Shown here: positions 5,891-13,349 of the stretch, piece after piece
How positions within the stretch are numbered: position 1 is the first letter of the stretch
Layout: each line of letters starts with the position of its first letter
Assembly: GCF_007644035.1 (NCBI RefSeq)
Contig: NZ_VMTV02000134.1
Span: 297,548 to 321,547 of the forward strand
DNA from: Vogesella mureinivorans
GTDB lineage: Bacteria; Pseudomonadota; Gammaproteobacteria; Burkholderiales; Chromobacteriaceae
Direction of reading: 5' to 3'
DNA length: 24,000 bases
Position numbers and translations under genes: made by a program
The notes under the pieces: model-generated
What the model saw: the letters and a program-made list of their open reading frames with translations, nothing else
The model's database searches: none
What the model was told of the DNA's origin: nothing

Positions 5891-6753
5891 TTCTTGCGCG
5901 GTTGCAGGTAGCGGAAGTTCAGCCAGGCCAGCGCCACGCAGAACACCGACATCACCAGGCTGGCAGCCAGTGCCCGGCCAAAGTTCAGCGACTTGATACC
6001 GAACTCGTAGGCGTAGAACAGTGCCGTATAGGTAGACTGCATCGGGCCACCCTTGGTCATGATCTGCACCTCCTCAAAGCACTTCACTGCGGCCAACATG
6101 GACATCACCGAGCACAGCAGGATGGTGGGCATCAGCAGCGGCACGGTAATTTTCCAGAAGCGCTGCCAGGCATTGGCACCGTCCAGCACCGCCGCTTCGT
6201 ACACGTCTTGCGGCACGCTCTGCAGGCCGGCCAGGTACAGCACCATGTACCAGCCCAGGCCGCGCCAGATGGTGACAAACATCACCGAAAACAGCGCAAT
6301 GCGGTCGTCGCTGAGCCAGCCTATGGGCTCGTTGATCACGTGCAGCCAGCGCAGCACCGCATTCAGCGCGCCGTCGTCGGTGTACATGAAGTTCCAGATC
6401 ACCCCGATGACCGACACCGTGGTGACCACCGGCAGGTAGTACGCCGCGCGGTAAAACTTGATACCCGGCAGCTGGTTGTTCACCAGCACCGCCAGCAAAA
6501 GGGCTAGCACCTGGATGGCAGGCACCACCAGCAGGTACAGCGCCGAGTTTTTCAGCGCGCTGATAAACAGTTCGTCGGCGAACAGCTCGCGAAAGTTATC
6601 CAGACCCACCCACACCGGGGCGTCGATCAGGTTGTATTGCGTAAACGCCAGGTAAGAGCCAAAGCCCACCGGCCAAAACGAAAACGCCATTAACAGCAGC
6701 AGTGCCGGGCCAAGAAACAGCCAGGCCTGCAGCGTATTTTTTCTGGAAGTCAT
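5887..6753 (-). CDS. Carbohydrate ABC transporter permease (MalF type)
   Basis: Multi-pass membrane protein with the EAA loop (YEAAVLDGANAWQRFWKITVPLLMP). I chose the start at MTSRKNTLQAWLFLGPALLLL (ATG at 6753). The track start at 6834 is a GTG buried in an intergenic hairpin. Confidence 0.88.
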   Translation of the reverse strand: MTSRKNTLQAWLFLGPALLLLMAFSFWPVGFGSYLAFTQYNLIDAPVWVGLDNFRELFADELFISALKNSALYLLVVPAIQVLALLLAVLVNNQLPGIKFYRAAYYLPVVTTVSVIGVIWNFMYTDDGALNAVLRWLHVINEPIGWLSDDRIALFSVMFVTIWRGLGWYMVLYLAGLQSVPQDVYEAAVLDGANAWQRFWKITVPLLMPTILLCSVMSMLAAVKCFEEVQIMTKGGPMQSTYTALFYAYEFGIKSLNFGRALAASLVMSVFCVALAWLNFRYLQPRKK

Positions 6754-6789
6754 ACTCACCGCACTTTGCAAACGTGATCCATAGCCCCC

Positions 6790-6814
6790 TTGGCCGCAGG
6801 CAAAGCCCGGCCAA
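6790..6814. repeat. Inverted pair of the window-wide TTGGCCG motif forming a hairpin
   Basis: TTGGCCG (6790-6796) and CGGCCAA (6808-6814) with an 11-nt loop, in the binding-protein/permease intergenic gap. Confidence 0.6.
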
Positions 6815-6842
6815 CCCTGCCTGCGCCGGGGCACAGGCAGGG
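6815..6842 (-). promoter_or_regulatory. Intercistronic GC-rich stem-loop (candidate mRNA stabiliser or partial terminator after the binding-protein gene)
   Basis: Perfect 9-bp stem CCCTGCCTG (6815-6823) / CAGGCAGGG (6834-6842) with a 10-nt loop and no U-tract. It lies in the 139-nt gap between the solute-binding-protein gene and the first permease gene. Confidence 0.45.
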
Positions 6843-6892
6843 CGGGTGTGAAGTGCCGTTACCGGGGTAACAGCCAGGCAATCACACGCGAA

Positions 6893-8146
6893 TTACAGTT
6901 TGCTGTTCCAGAAAGCCACGGCTTCATCCAGTGCCGCTTTCGGGTCTTTGCGGCCGGTGACGGCTTGCTCTACTGCGGCTGCCAGCTTGTTCGACAGCAC
7001 TTCCGGGTCTTTCACGCCAGACAGGAAAATGGTGCGGGTGCTATCCAGGCTGGAGGCCGCTACCGCTACCGCCTGCTCTACCGCGCCGCCCGGGGCCGCT
7101 ACGGTCTGGAAGTGCGGGTCTTTGGCCGCCTTGCCGCTGGTAGGCAGGGTGCCGGCCAGCTTGGAGAACGCCAGCTGGTTGGCGTCGTTAGTCAGGTAGT
7201 TGGCAAACTTGCCCACCTCCGGCAGCAGTGCCTTGTCCACGTTCTTTGCCACGGCAAAGTTGAACATCCAGCCGCCGGACGCAATGCCGGTCGGGCCTAC
7301 CGGGGCGGCCGCTACGGCAGTGGCCTTGTACAGCACCGGTGCTTCGTCACGGATACGGGTCAGCGAGGTAGGGGTGGAAACCAGCATGGCCATCTTGCCG
7401 GCGTTGTAAGCCTGCATCTGCACCTGGAAGTTATCCTGGGCAAACAGGTTGTCTTTCAGCAGCGCGCCAGCCTTGTAGGCATCGGCCAGCTTTTTCATCA
7501 TCGCCACGTGTGCCGGGCTGTTGAATACCGCCTTGCCGCCTTTCACCACGTCCAGGCCGTTCTGGATAAAGAAGCCTTCAATCTTGGTGGGGCCCAGCGT
7601 CGGGGCAAAGCCTGCTACACCGGTTTTAGCCTTGATGGCCTTGGAGAACGACAGCTGCTCGTCAAACGTCTTTGGCGCAGCCTTCAGGCCGGCGCGGGCA
7701 AAGATGTCTTTGTTGTAGGCAATCACGTTGGCGCCGTTGTAGTGCGGGAAGGCGTAGGTCTTGCCTTCAAAGGTCACGTCAGCCAGCGCGCCTTTCACAA
7801 ACTGTGTCTTGTTGATGATGGCGTCCACCGGCTGGATCAGGCCATCCTGCTTGTAGTCATACGCCCAGGGCACGTTCAGGTTCACCAGTGCCGGCGGTTT
7901 GCCGGCGCCTACCGCGGCAGTGAACTTGGCCTGAATCACATCCCACGGGTAGTCCGTCCACTTCACCTCTACGCCAGGGTTCTGCGCGTTGTACTTGCCC
8001 ACCAGGTCTTTGAAGTAGCCGTCGAATTTGGGCGACAGGCTCATGGTCCACACCTCGATCACCGGTTTGTCGGCGGCCAGGGCGCTAAAAGAGGTAGTCA
8101 GGCCAACGGCCAGCAGCGTGGCGCTGGCGATAGATTTCAGTTTCAT
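6893..8146 (-). CDS. ABC transporter extracellular solute-binding protein (family 1, sugar/chitooligosaccharide type)
   Basis: Signal peptide MKLKSIASATLLAVGLTTSFSALA-ADKP, starting at ATG 8146. The track start at 8200 adds 18 unlikely residues. Length is about 417 aa. It is the first gene of the permease/ATPase operon and has typical SBP_bac_1 composition (W/Y/K-rich, GKxxA motifs). Confidence 0.88.
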   Translation of the reverse strand: MKLKSIASATLLAVGLTTSFSALAADKPVIEVWTMSLSPKFDGYFKDLVGKYNAQNPGVEVKWTDYPWDVIQAKFTAAVGAGKPPALVNLNVPWAYDYKQDGLIQPVDAIINKTQFVKGALADVTFEGKTYAFPHYNGANVIAYNKDIFARAGLKAAPKTFDEQLSFSKAIKAKTGVAGFAPTLGPTKIEGFFIQNGLDVVKGGKAVFNSPAHVAMMKKLADAYKAGALLKDNLFAQDNFQVQMQAYNAGKMAMLVSTPTSLTRIRDEAPVLYKATAVAAAPVGPTGIASGGWMFNFAVAKNVDKALLPEVGKFANYLTNDANQLAFSKLAGTLPTSGKAAKDPHFQTVAAPGGAVEQAVAVAASSLDSTRTIFLSGVKDPEVLSNKLAAAVEQAVTGRKDPKAALDEAVAFWNSKL

Positions 8147-8293
8147 GCTCGGACTCTCGTTCGGGTTGTGTTGTGGTGGCGGCCGGCCTGCGTGTGTCAC
8201 GGCTGGCGTTCCTTTGGCAGCATTCGGCTACCGGTCTCTTGTTGGCAGCCACACTGGGCGGTTCTTGTATGGCCTTGGTGTGTCTGCCATTTC

Positions 8294-8322
8294 AATCTAA
8301 TACCAGAAAAATACCAGAGCAA
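8294..8322 (-). promoter_or_regulatory. Candidate sigma-70 promoter of the chitooligosaccharide operon
   Basis: On the minus strand: TTGCTC (8322-8317), a 17-nt spacer, then TAGATT (8299-8294). The spacer and flanks are occupied by the TGGTATT repeats. This would give a leader of about 140 nt beginning with an 11-bp imperfect hairpin (8244-8254 / 8278-8288). Confidence 0.35.
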
Positions 8323-8328
8323 TACCAA
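8299..8328 (-). promoter_or_regulatory. Three tandem TGGTATT operator repeats (NagQ/GntR-type GlcNAc regulator site, by recollection of published comparative genomics)
   Basis: The minus strand reads TGGTATT-gctc-TGGTATT-tttc-TGGTATT. These are three perfect heptamers with exactly 11-bp periodicity, at plus-strand 8299, 8310 and 8321. They overlap the predicted promoter. Confidence 0.55.
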
Positions 8329-8387
8329 TGTAAAACCTTTGTTAAATGTTGCAGTGCAGCTACATCAAAAATGCAACAAAACGGCAC

Positions 8388-8401
8388 TGGTATCGATACC
8401 A
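8388..8401. promoter_or_regulatory. Perfect 14-bp palindrome built from the same half-site (TGGTAT-CG-ATACCA)
   Basis: TGGTATCGATACCA at 8388-8401, about 60 bp upstream of the tandem repeats relative to the operon. It uses the same hexamer as the TGGTATT repeats in an inverted arrangement. Confidence 0.45.
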
Positions 8402-8659
8402 TTCTGCTAAAAACAGCCCATTTGATAACGTGGGTTATTATTTGGTACTTCGCTATTTGGCAGCATTTTTAAGCCATCTATATTCATAAAAATGGTATGT
8501 CATGCCTTGTTGGCTTATTGCTAACACGTGTTCAGTCGCATGAGGCCAGGCAGCCAGACAGAGCTGGCAGGGTGGCTTTTATTGGTATGGTTTCTGGTGT
8601 GCTAGTGGTATGGGCGGCAGGTGCCTGGCGAGGGTTGGCCACAGGGCCGGTGGGGATGG

Positions 8660-8680
8660 TTGGCCGCAGGGCACGGCCAA
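8660..8680. repeat. Inverted pair of the TTGGCCG motif forming a hairpin upstream of the KAP gene
   Basis: TTGGCCG (8660-8666) and CGGCCAA (8674-8680) with a 7-nt loop, 53 nt upstream of the KAP ATG. Confidence 0.6.
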
Positions 8681-8732
8681 TCCTGCGGCAGCCGCATGGC
8701 ATACTGTGCGCCTGCCCCACAGGTAAACCGCC

Positions 8733-10061
8733 ATGACCGATATCGCTACTGATTCGCCCCAGCTACTGACCGACGCCCCCGCCAACGCCGAAGAAGATCT
8801 GCTGGGCTTTGCGCCACACGCAAAAAGGTTGGCCGCATTAATCCAGAAACAGATTCCGGACAAAGCCAGTTTTGTCATCGGCATCGAAGGCGAATGGGGC
8901 GAGGGCAAGTCCAGCTTCATCAACTGCCTGAAAGCGGCGTTTCCTACTGACGATACGCGGCCAACCATCGTCGACTTCAACCCGTGGTGGTTTGAAGGCT
9001 CCGATCAATTGTTGCGTCATTTCTTTGATGAGCTATTGGGGCAGATCGACTGGACACGTGGTGACGGTCAGAAGCTGTTTGACAGCTTCAGCAAGCTGGC
9101 CGCCTTTGCTGGGCGAGTCGGCAAGCTGATGCAGACGGCAACCGAACCGATGCTACAAACGGCTGGCAAAGTCGCCGAAGGCGTGGGTCAGGCTTTCGGT
9201 GGTGGTAGCAAGCCGGAGTCATTCCGCAAGTTGCGAGAAGATGCTGCCGCCACGTTGTCGGCACTCAGTTTCAAAACCATTGTCTTCATCGACGATCTAG
9301 ACCGCCTGCCAGCGCGCGAGATTGTCGAGCTGTTCCGCGTCATCAAGGCGGTGGCCGATCTGCCCAATATCGTTTACGTCATCGCCTACGACCGCGCTAT
9401 CGTGGCATCTGCGCTTGATCAAGTGCATGAAGGCAGGGGGGAAGCGTATCTGGAAAAGATTATTCAGTACTCTTATTCATTGCCTCGTCCGCATGCTAAG
9501 CAGAAGCTTGCTTATAACAAGAAAGTTATTGCCCAATATCTAACTGATTTGCCTGGTGGTATTGACTATCATGGTGTGTCAAGAATTGTGGAAGCATTTT
9601 TGCCAGTGCCCAGAAGTGTCAAGCGCCTATCCGCAGCACTACTTGATTATCGCTTGGGTGTGCAGGATGGTATGGAGATGGATGCGCTTGATTATCTTTT
9701 TCTGGAAGCGGTACGTCATTTTGACATGGGTGTTTATAATGAACTAGCGCGTGCAATATTTTTCTCGCATGAGTACTGCCAATTAAACCCTGCACATTCG
9801 CTATCTGGAGAAGAAACGCCTTCTACACGTCTGGCGTGGGTAAGAGAAAGGTTTGAATATACCCTCAAAAAACACGCTCACCATCCAGAGGTGTTGGATG
9901 CTATACATTTCTTTACGGGCTTTGTCTTTTCAGAAAAACAGGAAAATGCTAGGGCGCATGGCTACCGTACCATGGGTAGCAAATTGCTGACCTATATTGT
10001 ATCGAAGAGGAGGAACCCTGCAGGCAGAAAGGGCTGGGTCATTACATCAGGGCATACCTAG
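8733..10061 (+). CDS. KAP-family P-loop NTPase (soluble form; possibly the 5-prime part of a longer frameshifted or recoded gene)
   Basis: 442 aa. Walker A GIEGEWGEGKSSF, the KAP-typical FNPWWFEG motif shortly after the P-loop, Walker B TIVFIDDLDRLPAREIVELF, then NIVYVIAYDRAIV and YLEKIIQYSYSLPRP. This order and spacing are characteristic of KAP NTPases. I see no transmembrane insert between Walker A and B. The tail after residue ~425 (VSKRRNPAGRKGWVITSGHT*) looks non-native. Confidence 0.85.
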   Translation: MTDIATDSPQLLTDAPANAEEDLLGFAPHAKRLAALIQKQIPDKASFVIGIEGEWGEGKSSFINCLKAAFPTDDTRPTIVDFNPWWFEGSDQLLRHFFDELLGQIDWTRGDGQKLFDSFSKLAAFAGRVGKLMQTATEPMLQTAGKVAEGVGQAFGGGSKPESFRKLREDAAATLSALSFKTIVFIDDLDRLPAREIVELFRVIKAVADLPNIVYVIAYDRAIVASALDQVHEGRGEAYLEKIIQYSYSLPRPHAKQKLAYNKKVIAQYLTDLPGGIDYHGVSRIVEAFLPVPRSVKRLSAALLDYRLGVQDGMEMDALDYLFLEAVRHFDMGVYNELARAIFFSHEYCQLNPAHSLSGEETPSTRLAWVRERFEYTLKKHAHHPEVLDAIHFFTGFVFSEKQENARAHGYRTMGSKLLTYIVSKRRNPAGRKGWVITSGHT

Positions 10062-10084
10062 CCAGAAGTCGTGATGAGGGAGAG

Positions 10085-10831
10085 GTGTCCAGGCAGGAGC
10101 TTGAAGCATTCGCCAAGATAAAAAATGTCGATGAATTGGAGTCTTATCTGCAGAGTATCGAGCTGCCGAGAGTCCAAAATCTGATGGAAGATCTATCCAA
10201 TGGATGGAGTGTAGTTTTTCAGCATGCTTCGAGTAAAGATTTCATCTTGGCGTGGAGTTATGCGTTTCAAAAACATCTTTCTGATGGTGAGAAGTACTTT
10301 TATGGGATTGAACTTAGTAATGTACTAAGGGTTTTTACTGAGATAGTTGCAAAAGATTATCGCTATCCATTGGGGTGGTCATCGGGTCCGGTAGATGCTG
10401 TGGAAAAATGGTTAGAATGTGGTAATTTGGATGATCTGGTATATAGATTAGTTCTTGATGATTTTATACCGCCTGATTTTTACCATGAAAAGAGATTTGT
10501 AATTTCTAAGATTGGTGAAGAGTCCGATTTGTCAAGGATGTTGGCTGGTGGCTATTTTCTACATGCTTGTAATGCAATAAATAGTACTTCAGAGGGAAGT
10601 ATAAAGGAGTGGTTAATTAATCTGGATGTGAAAGATAAAATCAATGATTGTCAGTTGTGGGAGTTGATAGAATTTATAGTTTCAGATTTTGTCACTAAAG
10701 GATATGCTGATCATTTAATTGATAATAAAAATATTCAGAAAATTTTGAAAACAGAAAAAAGGCTACTGGATGCAGCCAAACGTGACCCAGTTCTGCAGCT
10801 GGGGATCAACCGCCTGACCGGCGTGGTCTAA
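10085..10831 (+). CDS. Hypothetical protein (248 aa from GTG), or the C-terminal region of the KAP NTPase in the -1 frame
   Basis: Long ORF in 30-38% GC DNA, where random ORFs of this length are unlikely. It has acidic/helical-looking composition and no catalytic or binding motif I can recognise. Its frame stays open 105 nt upstream of the GTG, back to 9980, overlapping the end of the KAP ORF. The GTG has only a closely abutting GAGGGAGAG purine run as a possible SD. Confidence 0.5.
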
Positions 10832-10839
10832 GCCACAAC

Positions 10840-10861
10840 TTGGCCGCCCCGTTGCGGCCAA
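10840..10861. repeat. Perfect inverted pair of the TTGGCCGC motif (hairpin) immediately after the KAP-locus stop codon
   Basis: TTGGCCGC (10840-10847), loop cccgtt, GCGGCCAA (10854-10861). It lies 8 nt after TAA (10829-10831). No T-tract follows (ccttcccccc), so it is not a canonical intrinsic terminator. Confidence 0.65.
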
Positions 10862-10929
10862 CCTTCCCCCCGCCCGCTGCTACCCGCTACAATCAACCCC
10901 ATTTCGCAGAATTTCCAAGGAACCCGCTC

Positions 10930-12636
10930 ATGCGTGCCTCGCAGTTTTTCATCTCTACCCAGAAAGAAGCCCCCGCCGATGCGGATATCGTTAGCCAGAA
11001 GCTGATGCTGCGCGCCGGTTTTATCCGCAAGGTTGCCGCCGGTGTGTACAACTGGATGCCGATGGGCCTGCGCAGCCTGAAAAAGGTAGAAAACATCGTG
11101 CGCGAAGAGATGAACCGCGCGGGTGCCATCGAGCTGGTGATGCCTATCGTGCAGCCGGCCGGCCTGTGGCAGGAAACCGGCCGTTTCGACGGCATGGGCG
11201 CCGAGCTGCTGCGCTTTAAAGACCGCCACGACCGTGACTTCGTGATTCAGCCGACGTCCGAAGAAGTGATTACCGACATCGCCCGCGCCGAGCTGCGCAG
11301 CTACCGCGCGCTGCCGAAAAACTTCTACCAGATCCAGACCAAGTTCCGCGACGAGCGCCGCCCGCGCTTTGGCGTGATGCGTGGCCGCGAGTTCACCATG
11401 AAAGATGCGTACTCGTTTGACCGCACTGCCGACGACGCCGGCAAGAGCTACGACAATATGTTTGCCGCCTACTGCCGCATTTTCGACCGCCTGGGCCTGA
11501 CCTACCGCGCCGTGGCAGCCGATACCGGCGCCATTGGTGGCGACCGTTCGCACGAGTTCCAGGTGATTGCCGAAACCGGCGAAGACGCCATCGTGTACTG
11601 CCCGGACAGCGACTACGCGGCCAACATCGAGCTGGCCGAAGCGCTGGCCCCGGCGGGTGAGCGCGCTGCTGCTGCCGCCGAGCTGGCCAAGGTACACACG
11701 CCAGGCGTGAAAACCATTGCCGACCTGGTGAGCTTCCTGAACGTGGACATCACCCGCACCGTGAAAGCGGTAGTGGTGGAAGGCGAAGAGGGCGAGGCGG
11801 TACTGATGCTGGTACGCGGCGACCACGAGCTGAACGAAGTGAAGGCCGAAAAAGTAGCCGGCATCAAAAAGCCGCTGACCATGGCCAGCCCGGCGCTGAT
11901 CAAGGACGCGTTTGGCGCCAACCCTGGCTCGCTGGGCCCGGTAGGCTTCAAAGGCCGCGTGGTAGCCGACCGCACCGTGGCGCTGATGGCTGATTTTGTG
12001 ATTGGTGCCAACGAAGACCACTACCACTACACCGGTGCCAACTTCGTGCGCGATTGCGCCGAGCCGGAAGTGGCCGACATCCGCAATGTGGTGGTGGGCG
12101 ACCCGTCGCCGTGCGGCAAGGGCGCGCTGGCGATTCAGCGTGGTATCGAGGTGGGCCACGTGTTCTACCTGGGCACCAAGTATTCCCAGGCCATGAACGC
12201 CACCTTCCTGGACGAAGACGGTAAGCCGAAGCACTTTGAAATGGGCTGCTACGGTATCGGCGTGAGCCGCATCCTGGGCGCGGCCATCGAGCAGAACTTC
12301 GACGACAAGGGCATGATCTGGCCAGACGCCATCGCGCCGTTTGCCGTGGTGATCTGCCCGGTAGGCTACGACCGCTCCGAAGGCGTGAAAGCGGCCGCCG
12401 ACGCGCTGTACGCCGGCCTGCAGGCACAGGGCGTGGATGTGATCATCGACGACCGTGGCGAGCGCCCGGGCGCGATGTTTGCCGACTGGGAGCTGATCGG
12501 TGCACCGCACCGCGTGACCATTGGCGACCGCGGCCTGAAAGAAGGCAAGGTGGAGTACCAGCACCGCCGCGATAGCGAATCGACAGCGGTAGCGCCGGAC
12601 GCCATCCTGGCACACGTACTGGCCAAGCTGGCCTGA
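10930..12636 (+). CDS. proS: Prolyl-tRNA synthetase (bacterial type with INS editing domain)
   Basis: 568 aa from [34 protein letters not shown]. Class II motifs are present ([25 protein letters not shown]; [13 protein letters not shown]). An inserted editing domain and a C-terminal anticodon-binding domain are also present. The track start at 10840 is a TTG extension. Confidence 0.97.
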
Positions 12637-12644
12637 TTGCGGCC

Positions 12645-13283
12645 ATGACCCCGCTGCGCTTTGCCCTGCCCCTGTTGCTGGCTGCCCTGGTGGCGGCCCC
12701 GGCGTGGGCGGGTGCGCAGCGCGAGGAGGCGCTGGCGGCCAACGTGGCCAGCGCCATGTCGCGCAGCATTGCCGATGTGAACGCGCCAAGGCTGGTGTTT
12801 GAAGACCCGCGTGAGGGCCCGCTGTGGCTGGCCGAGATGTCGCGCCGGCTGGAAAAGCGTATTCCCGACCCATGGACGCGCGAGCGCCTGCTGACGGCGA
12901 TTCACTACGAAGCCACCCGCGCCGGGCTCGACCCGCAAATGGTGCTGGGGCTGATCCAGGTGGAAAGCGGCTTCAAGAAGTACGCCATTTCGCCGGTGGG
13001 CGCGCGCGGGCTGATGCAGGTAATGCCGTTCTGGGTGCGCAGTATCGGGGCCAGCGGGCATAACCTGTTCGACCTCACCACCAACCTGCGCTACGGCTGC
13101 ACCATTTTGCGGCATTACCTGGATATCGAGCGCGGTAATCTGTTTCGTGCGCTGGGCCGCTACAACGGCAGCCTGGGCCGCGCCGAGTACCCGAACCTGG
13201 TGGTGGGCGCGTGGAAGGCACACTGGCAGTGGCAGCAGCCCGCCGGCCAGCTGCGGACGGGCTACCAGCCGGCTAGCCGCTAG
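12645..13283 (+). CDS. Lytic transglycosylase (SLT domain) with signal peptide
   Basis: Signal peptide MTPLRFALPLLLAALVAAPAWA. The SLT catalytic region is LIQVESGFKKYAISPVGARGLMQVMP (catalytic E-S motif), followed by the downstream YNGS motif. Confidence 0.85.
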   Translation: MTPLRFALPLLLAALVAAPAWAGAQREEALAANVASAMSRSIADVNAPRLVFEDPREGPLWLAEMSRRLEKRIPDPWTRERLLTAIHYEATRAGLDPQMVLGLIQVESGFKKYAISPVGARGLMQVMPFWVRSIGASGHNLFDLTTNLRYGCTILRHYLDIERGNLFRALGRYNGSLGRAEYPNLVVGAWKAHWQWQQPAGQLRTGYQPASR

Positions 13284-13307
13284 TTGGCCGCAACGTTTGC
13301 GTGCAAT

Positions 13308-13334
13308 AAAAAACCGCCTTCGGGCGGTTTTTTT
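13308..13334. terminator. Bidirectional Rho-independent terminator (UUCG-loop hairpin)
   Basis: AAAAAA-CCGCC-TTCG-GGCGG-TTTTTTT lies between the convergent SLT and RDD genes. The A-run and T-run allow termination in both directions. Confidence 0.8.
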
Positions 13335-13349
13335 ATTGCCGTGGCAGGC

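Follow-up and report, generated by a model that had tools for sequence, protein, structure and literature searches.

A PifA-Like KAP NTPase Gene with a Probably Interchangeable, AT-Rich C-Terminal Module Upstream of proS in Vogesella

A KAP/PifA-Type NTPase Gene Split into Two Open Reading Frames

A stretch of 24,000 nucleotides (nt) from Vogesella mureinivorans, called here the window and used for all coordinates unless another locus is named, carries directly upstream of the prolyl-tRNA synthetase gene proS a gene for a PifA-like KAP P-loop NTPase that is divided in two open reading frames (ORFs) and whose second part is strongly AT-rich. We describe the composition of this gene, its junctions, the reassortment of its parts among Vogesella loci (L numbers) and proteins (P numbers), the conservation of its chromosomal slot, its frameshift and its KAP/PifA-type N-terminal domain. 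The AT-rich block is probably an interchangeable C-terminal module, exchanged among Vogesella by recombination at the slot upstream of proS. An initial annotation of the window had proposed that recombination replaced the C-terminal part of a single resident gene; this reading holds in its core and is partly supported as a whole, with corrections needed for its right-hand junction, the status of a GC-rich tail and a low-GC donor that is unproven.

The gene lies on the forward strand. ORF1 (8733..10061, 442 amino acids (aa)) encodes the KAP/PifA-like NTPase core together with the beginning of the module and is closed prematurely by a TAG (10059-10061), and ORF2 (10085..10831, 248 aa from a GTG) encodes the rest of the module in a shifted frame that is open from 9977. 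The resident N-terminal core (8733..9396), assigned to class N3, is 95% identical in nucleotides to that of L003, the nearest relative by its flanks. It is followed by a left crossover zone (9397..9467), in which the NTPase core ends with its most conserved sequence (..AIVASALD..GEAYLEKIIQ), and by the low-GC module of class C7 (9468..10804), which is predicted to be all alpha-helical and aligns only to L001, L002, L086 and L140.

Residues 27-262 of ORF1 score 166.3 bits (E = 1.2e-48; gathering cut-off of 20) with the Pfam family KAP_NTPase (PF07693), and residues 15-337 match positions 9-345 of the 720 of the PADLOC profile for PifA (PDLC02361; E = 3.1e-64), five other full-length alleles matching the same profile at 5e-60 to 4e-68. 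The Walker A motif (GEWGEGKS, 8889-8912, aa 53) and the Walker B motif (IVFIDD, 9279-9296, aa 183) are both intact and fall in invariant alignment columns. Beyond position 386 the PifA profile is matched by no allele, and ORF2 has no match at E <= 0.01 and no family match in Pfam or PADLOC. An AlphaFold model of P0001 (mean pLDDT 74, pTM 0.48) shows an alpha/beta NTPase to around residue 250, and then an all-helical region. When this model was compared with the PDB by Foldseek, also with a view to a likeness to STAND/NLR-like defence NTPases (Avs, bNACHT) beyond the P-loop/AAA+ core, the best matches were ORC/Cdc6 and RdrA of RADAR, the latter at E = 4.5e-6; the TM-scores were no higher than 0.2-0.4, and no match was found for the C-terminal region.

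Two homologues, P0001 (697 aa) and P0003 (726 aa), are intact single ORFs and align over their whole length with ORF1 plus ORF2, the latter being 57-62% identical in aa to their C-termini, and the window carries 11 extra nt with respect to the intact C7 alleles, in such a way that the frame is shifted and the TAG at 10059 is created. These data support that both ORFs were once one gene, as the initial annotation had claimed for 8733-10831, and attribute the split to the 11-nt insertion, which a three-way DNA alignment with L001 and L086 locates at 10032..10046, its exact placement being ambiguous. As the insertion splits the gene, the copy in this genome is probably inactive, or at best two-piece. 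The GTG of ORF2 (10085), 24 nt past the ORF1 stop, has a Shine-Dalgarno-like GAGGGAGAG upstream (10070-10087), and re-initiation at this codon, which is GTA in L001, may give rise to a two-piece protein.

A recurrent split at the same site was also considered, having in mind stand-alone ORFs of 230-291 aa (P0124, P0126, P0129), and it was rejected for P0126 and P0129. The DNA of these two comes from one long-read metagenome, in contigs labelled 2.19x and 3.22x, and in L140 the gene for the solute-binding protein (SBP) that lies upstream is also fragmented, with 171 gaps over 3.7 kb relative to the window, so that the splits of P0126 and P0129 are most likely sequencing frameshifts. Among the loci examined, a split appears credible only in the window.

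The Low GC of the Block Resides at Synonymous Sites and Is Common to the Module Class

When 8600-11400 was segmented by maximum likelihood with two breakpoints, these fell at 9446 and 10760 (log-likelihood gain of 55) and delimited three segments with GC contents of 0.587, 0.403 and 0.617; a weaker internal step, from 0.44 to 0.30, was found around 10404. The block at 9450-10765 has 40.4% GC, which corresponds to z = -7.3 with respect to the other 1316-nt stretches of the window (mean 62.3%, standard deviation 3.0, minimum 56.2). The sharp AT-rich block of about 1.3 kb described in the initial annotation was thus recovered, and its seven counts of GC per 100 nt were all reproduced within one point (59, 61, 49 where 50 had been given, 43, 32, 30 and 65%). 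The change is also stepwise, as had been claimed: at the right edge GC rises from 15-35% to 58-62% within about 40 nt (around 10750-10770), and the left step is spread over about 60 nt (9400-9460).

The compositional drop falls at synonymous sites. The GC content at third codon positions (GC3) falls from 0.66 in the N-terminal part to 0.39 in 9447-10031 and 0.33 in 10049-10768, recovers to 0.70 over the last 20 codons, and reaches 0.78-0.86 in the neighbouring SBP, proS and SLT genes. In the slot loci the cores have GC contents of 0.52-0.59 and the flanks of 0.56-0.67, and the C-terminal parts range from 0.36 (L088), 0.40 (L089), 0.44 (L001), 0.45 (L086) and 0.48 (L091) to 0.49 (L138), 0.50 (L087), 0.52 (L139) and 0.56 (L003). 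The difference between the GC of the C and N parts is -0.12 to -0.22 in the window, L001, L088 and L089. As a control, 27 complete, distantly related KAP genes from metagenomes, which span GC contents of 0.35-0.64, gave a mean difference of -0.007 (range -0.05 to +0.05), showing that the step is not a property of the family.

These values bear on the possibility that low GC is a family trait, inherited vertically and imposed by the amino-acid composition or structure of the C domain with no recombination involved. The intact C7 alleles of L001 and L086 do carry the same low-GC block and GC-rich tail, as such a trait would require, but the drop sits at third codon positions, the distant complete KAP genes lack an intragenic step, a class of 463 aa at the same slot (L003) has no drop, and the N and C parts differ grossly in their histories, as described below. 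We find this explanation scarcely credible.

The frameshift itself could also be invoked, with ORF2 drifting as a pseudogene under AT-biased mutation. The copy in the window is in fact the most AT-rich C7 allele (GC3 of 0.27 in 10271-10768, versus 0.44 and 0.35), and it shows a slight excess of GC-to-AT singletons (63 vs. 52). However, intact alleles also have the low-GC block, whose start precedes the frameshift by about 600 nt, and the share of first- and second-position changes is 43% on the branch of the window versus 50-57% on the others. Moreover, the ratio of non-synonymous to synonymous divergence (dN/dS) in 10271-10768 is 0.22-0.25 in comparisons with the window and 0.26 between the intact pair, so no decay attributable to the frameshift is visible. 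Decay is therefore a very improbable source of the AT-richness. The low GC is a property of synonymous sites in this module class, and not of amino-acid composition or decay.

Location of the Junctions

In blastn comparisons with ten loci that carry other C classes, the alignment with the window ends at 9460-9503 and resumes at 10813-10853, and the C7 loci L001, L002, L086 and L140 align straight through the block. The allele classes stop aligning beyond the motif YLEKIIQ, encoded at 9447-9467; in dot alignments anchored at this motif the sequences were nearly identical as far as the YLEKI[IV]Q codons, and between-class DNA homology was lost within about 10 nt after them. The Y, E, K, I and Q of YLEKI[IV]Q are invariant in 23 aligned proteins, and the motif is present in most or nearly all of the distant KAP genes examined.

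The ancestry of the left side was analyzed through a triplet test, in which informative sites of the window were compared with L003 as a proxy for the core and L086 as a proxy for the module. Up to 9396, 35 of 37 sites were L003-like, and from 9398 onwards 195 of 202 were L086-like (Fisher p = 1.4e-32), supporting a crossover in the ancestry of the window near 9397, in the stretch where the core is best conserved and about 50 nt before the compositional step. The left breakpoint of the initial annotation, put around the YLEKIIQ motif, agrees with the compositional step at 9446 but not with the crossover, which lies about 50 nt further left. In the interval between them (9398-9446), the window has A/T at third positions where all the other alleles, C7 included, have G/C, which suggests that the donor gene may have been AT-rich further to the left than the C7 genes sampled.

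On the right side, identity starts around 10857 when all the loci are considered, at 10841 for L087, 10836 for L088, 10829 for L089 and around 10805 for the C7 loci. As nucleotide identity with the other classes resumes at 10829-10857, the between-class junction is located at or after the stop codon (10829-10831), and not about 65 nt before it as first proposed. Both compositional steps do fall inside coding sequence, as had been stated for the breakpoints, but the right recombination junction does not. The last 20 codons and the stop (10769..10831, ending in ..GINRLTGVV) constitute a GC-rich tail that is found in all three C7 alleles, with a GC3 of 0.65-0.70 and 55-65% identical aa, and its consensus ..INRLTGV[AV] appears in P0001 and P0003 and in no other class. 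Since it is common to the C7 alleles and missing elsewhere, this tail is part of the module and not host flank, so that the assignment of the last residues (around 20) to host-like DNA has to be abandoned.

Cores and Modules Reassort at a Fixed Slot

A total of 51 Vogesella-type proteins were split at the motif and classified, with thresholds of at least 80% identity for N classes and at least 45% for C classes. This yielded 10 N classes and 13 C classes, with N1, N2 and N3 each combined with six to seven C classes. The window is N3 plus C7, and C7 is also found on N1 (P0001) and N2 (P0003). Accordingly, the core of the window is 86-95% identical to those of P0004-P0012, whose C parts are around 30% identical or not alignable, and its C part is 83% and 57-62% identical to those of P0001 and P0003, whose cores are only 68% and 44% identical to it. 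The incongruence of the segment identities, together with the switch of informative sites (p = 1e-32), supports the claim that the core and the C-terminal two-thirds differ in their history. A low-GC block shared by orthologues with a congruent phylogeny had been named as the sign of an old feature; the block is indeed shared by L001 and L086, but the N and C histories are incongruent.

The C7 module comprises a very conserved sub-block (9468-9740) and a hypervariable one (10271-10768) that is also the most AT-rich. The first 90 codons or so (9468-9740; L001 around 6745-7020; L086 around 1140-1415) show 95-96% protein identity and 90-93% DNA identity, with dN/dS of 0.04-0.07 across three very different cores, and they are far more conserved than the rest of the module or the cores; they would be either strongly constrained or recently shared.

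All the related loci fetched (L001, L003, L087 from Vogesella sp. XCS3, L088, L091, L092, L093, L138 from V. urethralis, L139 from V. indigofera, L140 and L141) have the KAP gene immediately upstream of proS and SLT, which agrees with the claim that it is a resident gene. The KAP gene usually lies also downstream of the same SBP gene; in L139 the upstream neighbour differs and the KAP-proS pair is kept. The flanks of the window are 92-98% identical to those of XCS3 and other loci. No slot devoid of a KAP gene was seen in the loci examined, although no systematic search for empty slots was made. When genome contigs were searched with ProS, the matches listed were only distant ones from Burkholderiales and Rhodocyclales, with 65-72% identity, and a contig retrieved by exact look-up of the SLT protein of the window begins inside proS, so it is uninformative about the slot.

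The foreign-looking composition and sharp edges of the block could likewise be produced by a mobile element or genomic islet inserted in the resident gene, with the ORF reading through it. Against this, the window has no tRNA gene, the direct repeats that flank the block are only chance 12-20-mers, and the block holds the KAP ORFs and no separate integrase or transposase gene. In addition, other alleles have a C-terminal half that is homologous to the block and collinear with it, and the relatives carry alternative modules of similar length at the same place, with no empty site, which argues for replacement and not insertion. An inserted element is thus hardly to be considered.

Origin of the Module and of Its AT-Richness

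Searches of protein collections for a donor returned only KAP proteins. With the module as a query, six proteins were detected in 5.8 billion clusters, all of them Vogesella-type KAP proteins, and a HMMER search with the last 261 residues against 1.84 billion representatives produced two strong matches (ORF2 of the window and the P0003 cluster) and a few weak ones, of which P0124 and P0126 align with the C9-class module. All the module relatives with recovered flanks are at the same locus, in genomes of around 60-65% GC. Searches of plasmid and phage collections with the module (tblastn), of viral contigs with P0001 and of metagenomes with the conserved part of the module gave no match. A metagenome scan with the N-core alignment detected two near relatives (L093, L094) and around 40 distant KAP genes, from which the composition control was taken; the module had no match among the low-GC KAP loci of this sample of metagenomes. 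The much lower-GC donor of the initial annotation is therefore not demonstrated, and as no donor was found, import is a step that we infer.

The synonymous divergence (dS) from the window is 0.10-0.36 in the flanks and 0.32-0.80 in the KAP core, around twice the value of the flanks, and in the C7 module it goes from 0.3-0.5 in the conserved 9447-9740 to 1.3-2.0 in the hypervariable 10271-10768. These values are compatible with the module classes being ancient alleles that diverged in place under balancing or diversifying selection, their low GC having arisen locally and recombination only reshuffling them. The low GC could in this case come from AT-biased mutation, weak codon selection or little GC-biased gene conversion, the latter because divergent classes would be unable to recombine with one another. 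Such an origin is favoured by the exclusive presence of the detectable relatives with recovered flanks at the same slot of GC-rich genomes and by their absence from the plasmids, phages and viral contigs searched. The middle region, in turn, is around 26-45% identical among the Vogesella classes and matched only the Vogesella-like L093 and L094, and no distant metagenomic KAP gene. Some GC deficit appears in all the classes, whose values run from 0.36 to 0.56, even the N core lies below its flanks with 0.52-0.59, and GC3 is low in all the C7 alleles despite saturated synonymous sites (dS 1.3-2).

The sharpness of the steps, especially the right one, and the AT-shifted codons of the window at 9398-9446, which point to a donor that was AT-rich beyond the module, stand against divergence in place. 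So does the substitution flux, for which singleton AT-to-GC and GC-to-AT changes were in ratios of 59:39 and 80:51 on the L001 and L086 branches, and of 70:35 at third positions combined, a polarity deduced by parsimony from three C7 sequences with the last 500 nt saturated. This excess is not what a local low-GC equilibrium would give; it fits an AT-rich ancestor and suggests that this ancestor may be slowly ameliorating, in such a way that an AT-rich origin of the module stays plausible. Divergence in place seems to us unlikely on balance, though it is a live alternative for the origin of the AT-richness, not for the recombination.

The way in which the flux was polarized weighs against the exchange of an imported module in a defence gene, and other observations do so too. 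No donor of the module was found in protein, plasmid, phage, viral or metagenome searches. The C halves of all the classes keep around 30% identity, with invariant residues to around aa 440, so the classes could be ancient alleles diverged in place rather than imports. The 11-nt insertion is known from one assembly only. As regards a role in defence, the structural matches of the P0001 model are at a generic NTPase level, and the coverage of the PifA profile is restricted to the N-terminal half.

Proposed Exchange Mechanism and Presumed Function

Vogesella species keep directly upstream of proS a single-gene PifA-like KAP P-loop NTPase in which a fairly conserved core is joined, just past YLEKI[IV]Q, to one of at least 13 very divergent C classes. 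According to the preferred explanation, the modules are probably swapped between lineages by homologous recombination. The data show a double crossover in conserved sequence on both sides of the divergent module, which yields chimeric proteins: one crossover lies in the conserved 3' end of the core (here around 9397) and the other in the conserved flank upstream of proS (around 10805-10857). In the window, an L003-like N3 core has been fused in this way to a C7 module, and the 11-nt insertion split the gene later. The helical C-terminal module would set what is sensed or how the cell responds, and diversifying selection driven by phages would favour its exchange; the route of DNA exchange is also something that we infer.

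The gene is presumed to encode an anti-phage defence NTPase of the abortive-infection type, and the module would be its specificity or effector part, on the basis of the match to the PifA profile and of recent work on other KAP NTPases. KAP NTPases with diverse C-terminal regions protect against phages, both the Walker B motif and the C-terminal region being needed, and different C-termini result in different phage profiles (PMC13552941). The proteins described there share with ours a KAP NTPase followed by a C-terminal region of around 320-480 aa with no known domain or structural match. Those are, however, unrelated genes of different bacteria, whereas the diversity seen here is among alleles of one orthologous locus in a single genus, with a mapped junction, a combinatorial reassortment of N and C parts and a compositional step.

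The likeness to PifA itself resides in the single protein of around 700 aa, whose NTPase half matches the PADLOC profile, other alleles reaching position 386 or so. By contrast, the C-terminal half has no detectable similarity to PifA, the gene is chromosomal and occupies a fixed slot by proS whereas PifA is plasmid-borne, and the N3 core of the window has no hydrophobic segment that reaches a hydropathy threshold of 1.6.

Transmembrane (TM) helices between Walker A and Walker B are typical of many prokaryotic KAP NTPases, although not obligatory. In a crude hydropathy test, the N1/N3 proteins (that of the window, P0001, P0006 and P0007) showed no such hydrophobic segment, the maximum 19-residue Kyte-Doolittle value being 1.46 against the threshold of 1.6. 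The N2-class proteins P0003 (L086), P0021 (L089), P0036 and P0043 have a TM-like segment around aa 160-183 with values of 1.7-2.0, and so membrane anchoring may differ between alleles of the same locus. The interval between the Walker motifs (9041-9270 in the window) is hypervariable, with 20-29% aa identity between core classes.

In Rhs proteins (core and tip) and CdiA (CdiA-CT), a conserved body is joined to a variable C-terminal module at the motif PxxxxDPxGL or VENN; the variable part has a markedly lower GC content within one ORF, and the modules are exchanged by recombination. This C-terminal displacement in polymorphic toxin loci was reportedly described by Hill in 1994, Jackson in 2009, and Zhang and Aravind in 2012. 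It can be seen as the closest formal analogy to the locus studied here, where a short invariant motif, YLEKI[IV]Q, also marks the junction between body and module, the modules reassort and the tip is low in GC. The protein encoded here is, in contrast, an NTPase and not a secreted toxin, and its classes are still distantly homologous. The displaced orphan modules and cognate immunity genes of Rhs and CdiA loci were not found downstream, where the stop codon (10829-10831) is followed by the conserved proS leader of 98 nt and then by proS, with no additional ORF or fragment of a module.

A second parallel is found in capsule and O-antigen switching and in hsdS shuffling, in which a double crossover in conserved flanks replaces a divergent, low-GC central segment. 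As in those systems, several deep allele classes are common to different lineages; here, however, one of the crossovers lies inside the gene, so that a chimeric protein is produced instead of a swapped gene cluster.

The gene thus belongs to known kinds, KAP/PifA-like defence genes and modular allelic exchange, and its value is mainly that of a ready-made domain-swap series. KAP/PifA-type NTPases were only recently shown to be a broad defence class, with C-terminal regions that are diverse and uncharacterised. The locus amounts to a set of natural chimeras at a single orthologous site, with at least 10 core and at least 13 C classes, and a junction mapped to a few nt indicates which part to swap in tests of specificity versus effector function. 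It is also a clean bacterial case of a within-gene compositional step caused by module exchange and not by island insertion, a caution for gene annotators and for composition-based detectors of horizontal gene transfer. For this particular genome the practical conclusion is modest, as its copy is frameshifted.

An Over-Represented 10-mer at the Common Flank

The 10-mer TGCGGCCAAC occurs 18 times in the window, nine on each strand, in coding and non-coding DNA, including 8659-8668 (-), 8828-8837 (-), 10853-10862 (+) and 13283-13292 (-). By chance 0.28 copies are expected, none of 100 shuffles reached 18, and the next unrelated 10-mer has five copies. An overlapping 10-mer, GCGGCCAACC, is present at 0.3-0.6 per kb in seven other Vogesella loci. 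One copy of TGCGGCCAAC constitutes the exact start of the flank common to all the allele classes (10853..10869, +), where it forms part of a 17-nt inverted repeat with 8652-8668, pairing with a copy upstream of the KAP start; this motif is kept in 11 loci. The density and lack of strand bias of TGCGGCCAAC resemble those of DNA uptake sequences. A literature search on a Vogesella uptake sequence or on this 10-mer found nothing relevant.

A more speculative and, in our opinion, rather doubtful proposal is that the slot is a dedicated exchange point for specificity modules, in which natural transformation would bring in members of an AT-rich module pool from an unsampled low-GC reservoir, two fixed anchors guiding the crossovers. 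The modules may then be a genus-wide pool of sensors or effectors moved between Vogesella lineages, the anchors may be the end of the core that encodes YLEKI[IV]Q and the conserved flank that opens with TGCGGCCAAC, and TGCGGCCAAC could be a previously undescribed sequence of the DNA-uptake type of Vogesella. If this were true, the series of N and C combinations would amount to a natural domain-swap experiment on phage recognition by KAP/PifA-type proteins.

Neighbouring Genes

The left neighbour of the KAP gene is the conserved gene of an ABC-transporter SBP (6893..8200, - strand; Pfam SBP_bac_8 and SBP_bac_1). Its true start is probably an ATG that gives 417 aa, in which case the gene would end around 8146, and it shows 92-96% nt identity in six Vogesella loci, with dS of 0.16-0.36. 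On the right, proS (10930..12636, + strand; Pfam tRNA-synt_2b, tRNA_edit and HGTP_anticodon), whose likely start is the ATG at 10930 (MRASQFF..), is 96-98% identical in nt across the Vogesella loci.

The SBP-KAP intergenic region (8201..8732) aligns at around 79-81% with other loci and has an AT-rich core at 8250-8550 (34-41% GC). This second AT-rich stretch is around 80% conserved and the same dip recurs in L003, L087 and L138, supporting that it is native DNA, regulatory or intergenic, outside the imported module. In L001 (2441-5888), five extra genes are present between SBP and KAP, which encode an AraC-type regulator, a 122-aa ORF, an epimerase, DUF2269 and DUF4166, so the intergenic region to the left of KAP is also a site of gene gain.

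Downstream of SLT, L003 (9142-11644) and L084 (2220-6238) contain an insert with a WYL/HTH regulator, a glyoxalase, DUF8412 and remnants of conjugation genes (CagX/TrbI/DUF2274), which is missing from the window, L087 and L091. Compared against the window around 13283-13340, this insert shows at its boundary an inverted match of about 40 nt (13300-13339 in the window).

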